From NCBI GenBank assembly GCA_963745075.1, contig CAVUWV010000031.1:160001-224000 (forward strand): a stretch of 64,000 nucleotides of DNA, read 5' to 3'. Shown here one piece after another: positions 36,703 to 45,966 of this stretch (position 1 is the first letter of the stretch; each line of letters begins with the position of its first letter). A model generated the notes under the pieces. The model was not told the origin of the DNA. It ran no database searches and worked only from the letters and a program-made list of their open reading frames with translations. This DNA is from Candidatus Hydrogenedentota bacterium. GTDB taxonomy: Bacteria > Hydrogenedentota > Hydrogenedentia > Hydrogenedentales > SLHB01. Made by a program: the position numbers and the translations under genes.

Positions 36703-39700
36703 ATGAGAAGCATTAGCAAGGCATGGAGCGCGTGGACGGTGTTGGCGGCGCTGGCGTGGGTGGCTGCGCCGGTAGTGGCCCACGGGCAATTCACGGAGGA
36801 CACGAGCGCCAACCTCACCGGGGTGTTTGGTTCTAGCGCGGCGTGGGGTGATTACGATAGCGACGGGGACCTGGACATCCTCCTCACCGGGGACACGGGC
36901 AGCGGCTATGTCTCAACGGTTTACCGAAACAACGGCGACGGAACTTTCACGGATATTGCCGCCAGCCTCACGGCGGTAGCGAGTTCCAGCGTGGCGTGGG
37001 GCGACTACGATAACGACGGGGACCTGGACATCCTCCTCACCGGGGACACGGGCAGCGGCTATGTCTCGGAGGTTTACCGGAACAACGGGGATGGCACCTT
37101 CACGGACATCGCCGCCAGCCTCACGGCGGTAGCGAGTTCCAGCGTGGCGTGGGGCGACTACGATAACGACGGGGACCTGGACATCCTCCTCACCGGGGAC
37201 ACGGGCAGCGGCTATGTCTCGGAGGTTTACCGGAACAACGGGGATGGCACCTTCACGGACATCGCCGCCAGCCTCACGGCGGTAGCGAGTTCCAGCGTGG
37301 CGTGGGGCGACTACGATAACGACGGGGACCTGGACATCCTCCTCACCGGGGACACGGGCAGCGGCTATGTCTCGGAGGTTTACCGGAACAACGGGGACGA
37401 AACGTTCACGGATATCGCGGCCGGACTCACCGCCGTGACCGCATCGAGCGCGGCGTGGGGTGATTACGACAACGACGGGGACCTGGACATCCTCCTCACC
37501 GGGGACACGGGCAGCGGCTATGTCTCGGAGGTTTACCGGAACAACGGGGACGAAACGTTCACGGATATCGCGGCCGGACTCACCGCCGTGACCGCATCGA
37601 GCGCGGCGTGGGGTGATTACGACAACGACGGGGACCTGGACATCCTCCTCACGGGGTACGACGCTGGCATCAACCGCGTCTCGAAGGTTTATCGGAACAA
37701 CGGGGATGGCACGTTCACGGACATCGCCGCCAGCCTCACGGCGGTAGCGAGTTCCAGCGTGGCGTGGGGCGACTACGATAACGACGGGGACTTGGACGTC
37801 GTCCTCACGGGGGCGGACGCCGGTTCCAATGGTGTGTCGAAGGTGTACCGGAACGACCTGCCCCCGGTGCTGGCCAACACCTTCACAGACGTCGCCGCCG
37901 GCCTCACCGGTGTGGACTTGGGCAGAGTGGCGTGGGGGGACTACGATAACGACGGGGACCTGGACATCCTTCTCACCGGGTTTGCGGCCGGCGCCATTGC
38001 CGTTTCTAAGGTATATCGAAACAACGGGGACGGCACCTTTACGGACATTGCCGCCGGTCTGCCCGGACTCTACATTTCCGGCGCGATGTGGGGGGACTTC
38101 GACAATGACGGAGACCTGGACATACTTCTCGTCGGAGACATGAGCGATACCCGCGTAGCTGGGATTTACCGGAACAACGGCGACAACACCTTCACGGAGA
38201 CCATGGGTACAGGACTGACCGGTGTGCTTTACGGCAACGTGGCGTGTGGGGATTACGACCACGACGGGGACCTGGACATCCTTCTTGCCGGATTTGATGC
38301 CACCGTCACGCTTGTCTCAACGGTTTACCGAAACAACGGCGACGGAACTTTCACGGATATTGCCGCCGGCCTGCCCGGAGTATCCGCCTCGAGCGTGGCG
38401 TGGGGCGACTATGATCACGACGGGGACCTGGACATCCTACTTGCCGGATTTGGCGCCGGTAGTGCGCCTGTCTCAAACGTCTACCGGAACAACGGGGACG
38501 AAACGTTCACGGATATCGCGGCCGGACTCACTGCCGTGACCGCATCGAGCGCGGCGTGGGGTGATTACGACAACGACGGGAACCTGGACATCCTCCTCGC
38601 AGGAATTGATGCCGGCGATACTCGTCTGGCAAAGGTTTACCGGAACAACGGGGATGGCAGCTTTACGGACATCACGGCTGGCCTCACCGGGGTGCAGGAT
38701 TCGAGCATGGTATGGGGCGACTACGATAACGACGGGGACCTGGACATCCTCCTCACCGGATCGGTCTCGAGTTCTGAAGCCGACGCAATCGCGAAGGTTT
38801 ACCGGAACAACGGGGATGGCACCTTCACGGACATCGCCGCCGGTCTTACCGAGGTGGCGTATTCAAATGTGGCGTGGGGGGATTACGACAACGACGGAGA
38901 CCTGGACGTCCTTCTTACTGGATTGGACGTCGGTTCCAATGGTGTGTCGAAGGTGTACCGGAACGACAACGTCCGGGCGCCTTCATTCGCGGTTAACGAC
39001 GTGACGCTTGACGAGGGAAACTCCGGCACGACGAGTTTCACATTTACGGTTACACGTGACCACAACCAGAGCGAAGCCTGGGTAGACGCCGCCACGACCA
39101 ACGTTTCCGCCATGGCGGGCAACGACTACACGGCCGTGACCGCTACGACCCTCCATTTCACGGCGGGAGGGGCGCTGTCCCAGCAGGTGACGGTGGACGT
39201 GGTGGGCGATTTGAGTGAGGAACCGGACGAGACTTTCCATCTCAACCTAGCGAACCCCGTAGACGCGGTCCTCGGGGACAGCCAGGGCCTGGGGACCATC
39301 CTCAACGATGATATCCCGCCGTCGATGACCACTCAACCTCAGAGATCAGGATGTCTGCGCGGGGACCGACGCCGTGTTCTCGGCGGCGGCTGCCGGTTCC
39401 CCGGCACCAACAGCGCAGTGGCAGGTGGACAACGGCAGCGGGTTTGCGGACATCCCCGGTGCGACCTCAACGACTCTGACGGTCTCCGCGCCAGACGCGA
39501 ACCTAAACGGGAACCACTACCGGGCCGTGTTCTCGAACGGGGTCAATAGCACCATGTCCGACCCGGCAACGCTCAGCGTAACAAGTACACCGGACGTGAG
39601 CGGTGTCGTCGTGACGGCGACGGACGGTGCGTTCCCTGACCACATCGACGTGACTTGGACAGCCGCACTGAACGCGACGGAGTACCAGGTGTGGCGTGCC

Positions 39701-40045
39701 ACGAAACAGAATCTGAACGGCGCAGCATTGGTCCGCGATTGGTCATCCGCGTTGCACTTCAGCGACAGCAACGTAGGCAGCATGCAGGCGGGTGGATTTC
39801 GATGTCCAGGCCAGGCGGCAGCGATGAAGTATTACTATTACGTGGTGGCCCGCAACCCGTGCTTCGAGAGCGTCCCGAGTTCGGCGGACAGCGGCTACGC
39901 ATCGTCGGCCAAGGGTCTTGGTACGTCTCAGGCGGGGCTCCTGGCTCCTGGAAGCGGCTTGGGTGAATTTCTGCTGTTCCTGGCGGCCTGCCTGGCCGGT
40001 GTCCGTGCGAAAAGGCGCAAACCAGCAGAAAGCGCCGCGAACTGA
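36703..40045 (+). CDS. Secreted FG-GAP/VCBS repeat protein with Calx-beta, Ig and FN3-like domains and a C-terminal anchor (+1 frameshift near 39342)
   Basis: 14 GD(Y/F)DxDGxLD repeats; Calx-beta EGNSG...EPDETF; continues as the 39374-40045 ORF. Confidence 0.88.
36961..37800 (+). repeat. Near-identical 153-bp intragenic tandem repeats
   Basis: Identical units start at 36961, 37114 and 37267; two further near-identical variant units follow. Confidence 0.9.
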
Positions 40046-41191: not shown

Positions 41192-41427
41192 GTATCCGTC
41201 CGGCGAACCCAGTGGTTGGTGAAGAAGCGAGTACGTGATGGACCGTTGGGACGTGATCAGTTCAGAGTTTTCCAGTGGTCGGGAAAGAGCTCGTGGATGC
41301 GGCGATTAGGGTGTGTGGGGATACGCGCGAGGAGGTCTTGGATATAGGCGAAGGGGTCGAGGTTGTGGCGGCGGGCGCTAGCGATGAGACTGAAATGGAT
41401 CGCGGCGGCGTGGCCACCGCGGTCGGG
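41192..41427 (-). mobile_element. IS66 family right-end remnant (TnpC C-terminus plus terminal IR)
   Basis: GGHAAAIHFSLIASARRHNLDPFAYIQDLLARI...ELFPDHW; IS66-like end GTATCCGTCCGGCGAACC at 41192. Confidence 0.8.
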
Positions 41428-41671
41428 GAAATAAAGGGACAGACTACGAATTACCCACTTCTCCGCCGTCTTTCTCCGTCCGTTTGCGTTTCCGGCCTCG
41501 TTTGGCAGGACGCAGGAGGCGACCGAGCAGGTTCTCCAGCTGGACCACAAACTGGCTCCCGCCGCAGGGGCGGCCAGTGCTGGTCTGGCGGCGAATGCGT
41601 TCGATGGCATCGGGATCGTCCTCCACACTAAGCCATCCCGCCCAGTCCTCGATAACGCCGGGCGGGGGCAA
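41428..41671 (-). mobile_element. C-terminal fragment of a Y1/RAYT-like transposase with end motif
   Basis: DWAGWL...IRRQTSTGRPCG..FV..LE..LGR.LRPAKRGRK, followed by the motif GAAATAAAGGGACAGACTACGAATT (41428-52). Confidence 0.7.
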
Positions 41672-41794
41672 CTGCTAGTAGAGTAGCCGGTCTCGCTGTT
41701 TTGCGCAAGAGGAGATTTAATTGCGGAGTGCGGTCCCCGCCTGCGCGAGGATGACGGGCAGGTTGGCACGGGCGAGAGCTTTGGCGGTCCGGGT

Positions 41795-44054: not shown

Positions 44055-44603
44055 TTACCATACGGCGGTGTATCCTTCCGGAAGGAGATTCCACTCTTCG
44101 CCGTACACGTGAACCGTGTGCGTTTCGCGGCCCTCGGGGTCAACGACTTTGCCGCCGTCGTGCACCCAGGACAAAATGCTTCCCTTCAGATTGTATGCGT
44201 CGAGGCCGTCTTCGCGGAGGGCCTCGGCGTATTCTCCGCTCCGGTATCCAATGGTGCAATACGCGACGACCTTTCGATGTGCGTAGGAGTCGCGATGGGC
44301 GTCGAATTGTTCCTTACTGATGGAGCCGGGAATCACAGACACGGCACGCTCCTCCGGAGTGCGGGCGTCAACCAGGACGACGCGATCGTCTTTCAACATG
44401 CCCTGCACTTGCGCTGGAGAAACTGTCGGCACATCCGGGAACGACTTCTGATACTGCGCGAACATGGACTCGATGGCGGCGCGTTTCTCGTTGTCCGTCC
44501 GATCGTCTCGGTCCGGCGCGCGCCACACGCAACGGCATACACTCCCGACAACGAAAAGCAGAATTCCTATACGCAGAATACGATGTATAGTAGAAATAGT
44601 CAT
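44055..44603 (-). CDS. Rhodanese-like domain protein
   Basis: LVDARTPEE..VSVIPG, YCTIGYRS, NLKGSILSW. Confidence 0.88.
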   Translation of the reverse strand: MTISTIHRILRIGILLFVVGSVCRCVWRAPDRDDRTDNEKRAAIESMFAQYQKSFPDVPTVSPAQVQGMLKDDRVVLVDARTPEERAVSVIPGSISKEQFDAHRDSYAHRKVVAYCTIGYRSGEYAEALREDGLDAYNLKGSILSWVHDGGKVVDPEGRETHTVHVYGEEWNLLPEGYTAVW

Positions 44604-44701
44604 AGTTCAGATCTTGACAGGGCCTACCTCTGTATCCGAGACTCGTCGTGATTATTGATTATTTCGGTGCAACTTTTCCCGGTCGCGCGGCATAATAAAC
44701 G

Positions 44702-45294
44702 GTAAGGCGTATGGTGCGCGCTGAGTGAAGGTGTTGGCAGCCGTTCATTGACGCGGGAACCCACTCACCAAATTGGGGGTTTCACACATCACGCAAAGGT
44801 TGCGGCTGTCGGGTTCTTGTGTTCATGCTTTGCTAACCGTTATGAGGTACGAAGAGGGGTCGTAAGCGGAAAGCGAACAAACGAATCTTCGCTGCGAGTC
44901 TCGCATAAACCATAACCAAATCTTAGCGGCCGTTCGGCGCGTGGACCCTTTCAAGGCAATTCTGCATACCAGGTCAGGTATTCAGTAATTCACGCGTCGA
45001 GCGGTCGCTGATTTCACCCCTTCCATCCTTGCGTCAGCGTTGTCCAGCGGCTATGCTCACCGTTTGTTTCACCGGCGAGAGGTAGTCATTCAAACTTGCC
45101 ACTCATGTATTCAGAAAAGGTGAAGGACTATGCCACTCGTTCGCATTCCGCTTTCTTCGAGGACCGGCGCCGTGGCGGCGACCGTCCTGGTCCGGAGTTC
45201 GAGGGCTATTGAGTGCGCCATGAATTGGTGCAGTTCGTTCTATGCGACGGGGGCACAGGCTCAGACGCCGGTTACGTTGAAGAAAGCGGACTGA
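44702..45294 (+). ncRNA. Candidate large structured RNA or regulatory leader (family unknown)
   Basis: No ORF over 60 aa across 44660-45100; several G-U-compensated stems and long-range pairings; CATAAT -10-like box at 44691. Confidence 0.5.
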
Positions 45295-45297
45295 GGG

Positions 45298-45966
45298 GTG
45301 AAATTGCGGGAACGGCTCCTCGATATCTACCGGCGCATGGAAGCCCACTACGGACCCACCCATTGGTGGCCGGGCGACACGGCATTCGAAATCGCCATCG
45401 GCGCGATTCTCACCCAGAATACGGCGTGGACCAACGTTGAGAAGGCTATCGTCAACCTGAAACGCGCCAAGCTGCTGTCGCCTAGCCGGATTCTCGAATC
45501 GAAGGACGCCCAATTGCACGAGGTTCTCCGGCCGTCGGGCTACTTTCGAATCAAGACGGAGCGGGTGCGCAGCTTCTGTCGACATCTCACCGAACGGTAT
45601 GCCGGCAGCATGGCGCGAATGGCCAAACGCCCCCTCGACGAGTTACGCCACGAGTTGCTCGGGATACCCGGAATCGGGCCGGAAACGGCAGATGACATCC
45701 TGCTCTACGCCTGCGGCAAACCGGTGTTTGTCGTGGATGCGTATACGCGCCGCATGCTGTCGCGTCACGGGTTGGTGGAGCCGGATATCGAGTACGAGAC
45801 GCTTCGGGCAGTCTTTGAACGCCGGCTTCCGGCGGATGTGCGCTTGTTTAAGGAATACCACGGGCTTATCGTCTGGACGGGGAAGGACTATTGCCGTCGA
45901 ACGCCCAAGTGCGAGGGCTGCCCCCTTGCGCCATTGCTGAAACGGGGACAGCCTCGGTTGGGATAG
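45298..45966 (+). CDS. Endonuclease III-related HhH-GPD DNA glycosylase
   Basis: GAILTQNTAW, GIGPETAD, VVDAYTRR, C..PKC..CPL iron-sulfur motif. Confidence 0.9.
   Translation: MKLRERLLDIYRRMEAHYGPTHWWPGDTAFEIAIGAILTQNTAWTNVEKAIVNLKRAKLLSPSRILESKDAQLHEVLRPSGYFRIKTERVRSFCRHLTERYAGSMARMAKRPLDELRHELLGIPGIGPETADDILLYACGKPVFVVDAYTRRMLSRHGLVEPDIEYETLRAVFERRLPADVRLFKEYHGLIVWTGKDYCRRTPKCEGCPLAPLLKRGQPRLG

Follow-up and report, generated by a model that had tools for sequence, protein, structure and literature searches.

The conserved unit of the region analysed is a hairpin of about 95 nt (44923-45011), in which a long covarying stem carries a near-invariant apex, and which very likely belongs to an undescribed structured RNA on the + strand, behind a conserved promoter-like site. 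With a probability of about 0.45, and thus tentatively, we read it as a small non-coding RNA gene with a promoter of its own, which moves together with an operon for an exported SAM hydrolase and an endonuclease III-like protein. The region lies in a stretch of 64,000 nt (the window) and had originally been predicted to form one highly structured RNA of about 600 nt. It consists of three separate things, namely the hairpin, a 5′ extension and a gene remnant, arranged as follows:

44055..44603, − strand: rhodanese-domain gene, divergent, the upstream neighbour in the genome's own genus only
44667..44696, + strand: upstream promoter-like site (GTGCAA, 18 nt, CATAAT), a pattern match
44703..44922, + strand: genus-specific 5′ extension of 220 nt (z −0.48)
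44923..44945, + strand: 5′ strand of the long stem P1, a 23-pair run with two-sided changes
44962..44974, + strand: near-invariant apex YUGCRURCCAGGY, with its 7-nt loop at 44966-44972
44989..45011, + strand: 3′ strand of P1, with the putative RNA 3′ end just beyond
45012..45025, + strand: pyrimidine-rich tail, read from the aligned member sequences
45029..45057, + strand: second promoter-like site, located between the hairpin and the operon (TTGCGT, 17 nt, TATGCT)
45130..45294, + strand: remnant of a SAM hydroxide adenosyltransferase (DUF62) gene, a 54-codon ORF aligned by its C-terminus
45298..45966, + strand: endonuclease III-like HhH-GPD gene, second gene of the operon, by domain match

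Folding of all 607 nt gave z-scores of −4.6 on the + strand and −2.2 on the − strand, and the stability was local, not spread over 600 nt: 44920-45017 reached z −8.1, the 5′ part (44703-44920, z −0.5) was not structured beyond chance, the spacer (45018-45129) gave z +0.9 and the segment of the 54-codon ORF z −2.8. The 5′ extension varies in length among homologues from about 10 to about 230 nt, and the consensus fold of four sequences had an unfavourable covariation term. The 19-bp stem of the original prediction (44925-43 with 44991-45009; 16 Watson-Crick and three G-U pairs) was recovered and extends to 23 consecutive pairs. In the longest-run control, dinucleotide shuffles averaged 12.6 pairs and none of 100 reached 19, and the pair probability of P1 in the 64-kb stretch was 1.0. 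All five short stems that had been named were likewise present. The proposed covariation check among homologues, run on a plain MAFFT alignment, showed two-sided changes in 11 of 14 stem pairs (shuffles: mean 5.0, 0/500 as high; slid registers: 3-5), and a model-fitted alignment of 15 sequences again gave 11/14, both counts being uncorrected for the kinship of the member sequences, which are related to one another. Of the large undescribed RNA first proposed, the undescribed structure with covarying homologues thus stood, at a size of about 95 nt and not 600.

Across the members, the architecture comprises a GC-rich P1 of 15-23 bp, an asymmetric purine-rich loop, a short inner stem that differs between genera (read by eye) and the apex, whose 7-nt loop can be closed by C-G and G-C/G-U pairs; both closing pairs are kept in 15/15 rows, without any two-sided change. 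Core z-scores of 15 members ranged from −1.8 to −8.3. The further hairpin said to be enclosed by the stem does exist in this genome, but it differs from the fold predicted for the relatives. Here P1 has stayed complete, whereas the apex is predicted to pair with a local insertion, a picture compatible with early decay as well as with a changed fold. In the flanks of the members, we found no conserved segment with which the apex could form an alternative pairing or a pseudoknot.

A covariance model built from 10 sequences (E<0.001) detected the hairpin in 16 of 135 genomes of the phylum, all from one family and five genera, and returned the same 16 among the 54 genomes of the family as among the 135; each genome carries a single copy. 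All four genomes of genus g29 were found although they had been outside the training set, and in each the hairpin lies directly before the hydrolase orthologue. In the covariance searches, 31-150 of 600-2400 first-look candidates were scored in each genome, and remote copies may therefore have escaped them. A second model (15 sequences) added nothing but palindromic repeats of genome G032, where a REP-like palindrome, variable in its loop, recurs about 120 times (e.g. L079, L080, L288, L290, L291, L296-L310), the loop of one subfamily resembling the hairpin apex. A DNA search of 61 genomes gave matches in three of five congeners, limited to stem and apex; in all three, the acetyl-CoA synthetase and rhodanese genes come first, followed by the intergenic region, the 302-aa hydrolase gene and the endonuclease III-like gene.

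All 16 hairpins lie upstream of, and co-oriented with, the SAM hydroxide adenosyltransferase/endonuclease III-like operon or its remnant: 14 directly before the intact gene, one before a remnant (this genome) and one separated from it by an island (G062). The upstream neighbours fall into eight groups among 15 loci, and the downstream link is constant. The hydrolase orthologue was found in 34 of the 54 family genomes and is accompanied by the endonuclease III-like gene in 30 of these 34 loci; the apex motif was seen upstream of it in 11 of 29 loci with upstream DNA (30 loci returned). The carriers are scattered over distant branches of the hydrolase protein tree, with five changes. Covariance and motif searches revealed no unlinked copy in the 38 other family genomes, 18 of which have the hydrolase gene without a hairpin before it; in G002 the hydrolase gene starts at the contig edge, which leaves the presence of a hairpin undecided. 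A link to the endonuclease gene alone was rejected, as the motif was absent before that gene in 4/4 loci of genomes without the hydrolase. Beyond the phylum, the motif was found in none of 73 loci with hydrolase homologues (L212-L284), in none of five genomes carrying such homologues and in none of 151 genomes that were drawn from the phylum of G135 and searched with 28 scored candidates each and no positive control, and phage and plasmid collections yielded nothing meaningful. A metagenome pattern scan returned at least 120 loci and at least four viral ones, which are chance matches (best 28.6 bits among the matches listed); the top matches are a eukaryotic-looking tRNA-derived repeat, a hydrolase gene stands beside none of the matches listed, and these have no bearing on the absence of the motif.

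The hydrolase of the congeners has 302 aa, both SAM hydroxide adenosyltransferase domains (PF01887 and PF20257, in P0001) and, judged by eye, a signal peptide; no agreed physiological role is known for DUF62 SAM hydrolases. The 54-codon ORF with its GAAGGA RBS (45130-45294), originally proposed to encode a small peptide, is present and starts and stops at the same positions as this gene. Over its last 36 residues it agrees with the C-terminus of P0001 at 20/36 positions (56%); no Pfam match was obtained, and both hydrolase domains are not intact, the aligning part being these C-terminal 36 residues only. Its codons show 16 amino-acid-changing versus 10 silent differences, as against 21 versus 64 in the next gene, and it has changed a glutamine kept in 34/34 orthologues and a glycine kept in 33/34. 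Judged from these comparisons, the ORF is what an internal, in-frame deletion has left of the SAM hydroxide adenosyltransferase gene, and it is decaying; its frame may have been kept open for coupling to the endonuclease start. A second homologue of the enzyme, with 37% identity to P0001 in the catalytic part, is encoded elsewhere in the same genome (G000:C18:299059-299775). The homologues P0032, P0070, P0089, P0107, P0110 and P0119 are 408-420 aa long, and in some of them a further Pfam domain (PF22599, PF20242) is present.

The conformational switch and the 5′-3′ closing stem that had been postulated lie in this remnant, and neither is conserved. The 9-bp closing stem (44711-19 with 45213-21) can be drawn, with two G-U pairs, but a pair tested from it had an ensemble probability of 0.0, and the region holds 19 runs of this length (9 or 10 pairs). 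Segment 45139-58 can form both pairing A (14/15) and pairing B (12/12; a 12-bp all-Watson-Crick run arose in 1/100 shuffles), but their probabilities were 0.0 and 0.99, so no balanced switch is predicted, and the congeners give 6-7 pairs for either arm.

The promoters and RNA ends described here are putative, being pattern matches. The −10-like CATAAT reported at 44691 was confirmed, and in the upstream site TGCAACTTTT and GGCATAAT are invariant in 4/4 aligned members of the genus, including the three congeners; transcription would start near 44703. A promoter scanner found none, the upstream site being too far from consensus, and a terminator scanner made no call on the tail at 45012..45025, which is U-rich in most homologues, weak in this genome and absent in G003-G005 and G064. 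A −10-like box, from a list chosen after inspection of the sequences, precedes all 16 members at 15-230 nt. In G065 and the four g29 genomes it lies about 15-22 nt before the stem, leaving no room for an upstream antiterminator. Between hairpin and gene, a TTG-17-TAnnnT site occurs in 7/16 members from three genera (shuffle rates of 2-16% each), an eighth flag (G069) falling inside the coding region, and three further members have a TG-extended TATGAT in the gap. At loci without the hairpin, TTG-17-TAnnnT was found in 3/18 and some TAnnnT in 15/18. Genus g29 has no second promoter, and its start codon follows the stem by about 55-60 nt.

In G062, an element of 12,729 bp is inserted at the hairpin apex (L062, G062:C50:2500-19500). 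It carries genes for a tyrosine integrase, a Prim-Pol/D5 primase and a serine resolvase, and 41 nt, beginning with the first base of the 7-nt loop and ending with P1, are duplicated at both of its ends without mismatch. The insertion restored the 3′ half of the hairpin, and the apex is the integrase crossover site; relatives of the integrase were absent from the viral contigs searched. In PMC4383910, a duplication that restores the target is described as a signature of islands in tRNA and tmRNA genes, and such islands share with G062 the tyrosine-integrase element, the restored target, the displaced 3′ fragment and a crossover in a 7-nt loop. They differ in that the target in G062 is neither a tRNA nor a tmRNA gene, and G062 is a single case.

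The original prediction had recognised no known RNA family, and the Rfam check agreed: no family matched the region at gathering or E-value thresholds, the only matches being at chance level, and there was no ARAGORN tRNA/tmRNA, SRP, 6S or RNase P match, the genome's own 6S, RNase P, SRP and tmRNA genes being on other contigs. The closest likeness is to the SAH riboswitch (RF01057), whose Rfam consensus reads GAGGAGCG cUGCAA [P2] cCCAGG CUCGG ... AACGGCGCUC. The apex CUGCA-UA-CCAGGCU equals the two inner halves of this consensus (cUGCA, CCAGGCU) joined by 2 nt, the UGC and CCAGG core letters being common to both, and both RNAs stand before a gene of SAM/SAH metabolism. In contrast to RF01057, the hairpin has 2 nt in place of P2, inside a stem of 15-23 bp. 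The contact table of a review names G15, A29, G30, G31 and G47 as contacting SAH (PMC5049679). No member has the CCGAG/CUCGG P1, the GAGCG/CGCUC pseudoknot or the AACGG tail; GAGCG occurs upstream in 1/15 members, as part of the long stem, and both pseudoknot halves occur in none. In the numbering of the crystallised construct, G15, A29, G30 and G31 would presumably fall in letters shared with the apex and G47 in the missing tail. RF01057 matched neither the region nor any of 12 member loci at E≤10, and gave no match over the cut-off in the 135 genomes; with P1 and pseudoknot absent as well, the hairpin is not an SAH riboswitch, and the likeness of the apex to the SAH core is a tentative lead towards possible ligands. 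A near-threshold SAH riboswitch match was observed in G035 (L292:1027-1102, − strand; 35.3 bits, cut-off 37), with a complementary pseudoknot partner and no long ORF found directly behind it.

The SAM/SAH riboswitch, as presented in PMC6411933, likewise has a stem whose loop, about 13-14 nt long, is highly conserved; this loop pairs with the ribosome-binding site in a pseudoknot, whereas the hairpin has no conserved partner and no Rfam match. Small SRP RNA (RF00169) and 6S RNA (RF00013) are similarly rod-like, with a conserved apex and an asymmetric purine-rich loop (SRP also in its length of about 100 nt), but their models match nothing in the hairpin, which is patchy and confined to one family. 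Antisense pairing with start codons was rejected, since only one of 46 sites complementary to the apex in this genome lay at a plausible start, and so was a T-box-like pairing, since no tRNA matched the apex at its anticodon. Literature searches found no description of the motif and no paper linking DUF62 SAM hydrolases to an RNA motif; the main text of PMC11109978 and one supplement of PMC8632094 contained none of the gene names, and a related motif may be listed in the supplements of PMC11109978 and PMC5737381. The hairpin is real as an RNA motif, narrow in range and apparently undescribed.

As a separately promoted small RNA gene, the hairpin would be transcribed from the upstream promoter as an RNA of about 315 nt in this genome and about 100-200 nt elsewhere. 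The very stable stem would close and protect the RNA and, together with the pyrimidine tail, end most transcripts; the operon would be served mostly by its own promoter behind the hairpin, plus read-through, which in genus g29 would be the only evident source of its transcription. The stem would be a scaffold presenting the apex to a partner. Our best guess, a speculative one, is that this partner belongs to the adenosyl compounds (SAH, SAM or adenosine) or to the proteins of SAM turnover, since the linked enzyme converts SAM to adenosine and methionine and the apex has the letters of the SAH riboswitch's inner core. A separate gene is favoured by the −10-like box before every member and the second promoter-like site in seven, by the lack of room for an antiterminator in G065 and g29 and the firmly predicted pairing of P1, by the absence of a conserved alternative pairing, by the island that restores the hairpin as islands restore tRNA and tmRNA genes, and by the intact stem in this genome despite the decay of the hydrolase gene. 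Against it, no unlinked copy was found, though a moving operon should sometimes leave a free-standing gene behind; the upstream neighbours vary and the downstream link is constant; g29 combines a close start codon with a missing second promoter; the apex is predicted to be sequestered here, as if decaying after gene loss; and the island is one case, also explicable by restoration of a terminating hairpin ahead of the integrase.

A real possibility is that the hairpin is an orphan riboswitch or attenuator of the hydrolase operon, whose apex would bind SAH, SAM or adenosine and so lead to faster closure of the terminator stem or altered translation; in one variant it is possibly an SAH-aptamer core on a new scaffold. 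Its invariable place before the same operon, down to the four g29 genomes outside the training set, would be expected of such a regulator, as would its carriers on distant branches of the hydrolase tree, its absence before the endonuclease gene where the hydrolase is missing, the U-rich tails of most members and the SAH-like apex with its four presumed contact letters. The second promoter-like site behind the hairpin, the want of a partner for the apex, the missing SAH P1 and pseudoknot, the GC-rich stem, which leaves little to switch, and the restoration in G062 all speak against it. Combining both views, an adenosyl-sensing aptamer of new architecture, with the SAH core freed of P1, P2 and pseudoknot and set on a long stem, might sense SAM, SAH or adenosine for the exported hydrolase and be set free as a small RNA in most genera, treated by the integrase like a tRNA gene; we think this unlikely.

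It is distinctly unlikely that the element acts as DNA, as a protein-binding site or single-stranded-DNA hairpin: the apex does contain a short inverted repeat and serves as attachment site in G062, but 60 of 423 predicted pairs are G-U on the + strand, this strand folds better than the − strand in 14/16 members, and the orientation is fixed behind the promoter-like box. A domesticated or idle palindromic repeat, related to the REP-like family of G032, is very improbable; the weakest model matches (26-31 bits) are such repeats and one of their subfamilies has a similar loop, but the hairpin is single-copy, lacks all terminal motifs of the repeat and combines an imperfect stem showing compensatory changes with an invariant apex, and the repeat pattern is absent from G000, G012, G064 and G069. 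Least credible of all is a 600-nt RNA, or a switch, by which a 54-aa peptide or the endonuclease gene would be controlled: the two pairings, long for chance as they are, shrink in the congeners, are not balanced and overlie a decaying gene, so that a conserved mechanism of this kind is largely refuted, though they might serve a recent function confined to the lineage of this genome.

With 16 genomes, covariation and 13 near-invariant letters, the hairpin is a compact candidate for an RNA family from a little-studied phylum. A ligand, if found, would point to the role of the exported form of the DUF62 hydrolase and could add a riboswitch class or reveal how aptamer cores pass between scaffolds, and the integrase restoring a hairpin that is neither tRNA nor tmRNA suggests that islands may be mined for RNA genes not yet known. 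Elsewhere in the window, a long FG-GAP-like repeat protein is spread over two overlapping frames (36703-40045; 948 aa and 223 aa), which suggests a frameshift. A short frame on the − strand (41257-41700), upstream of the acetyl-CoA synthetase gene, has a transposase-like C-terminus that we take to resemble IS66 TnpC and is probably a fragment of a mobile element.
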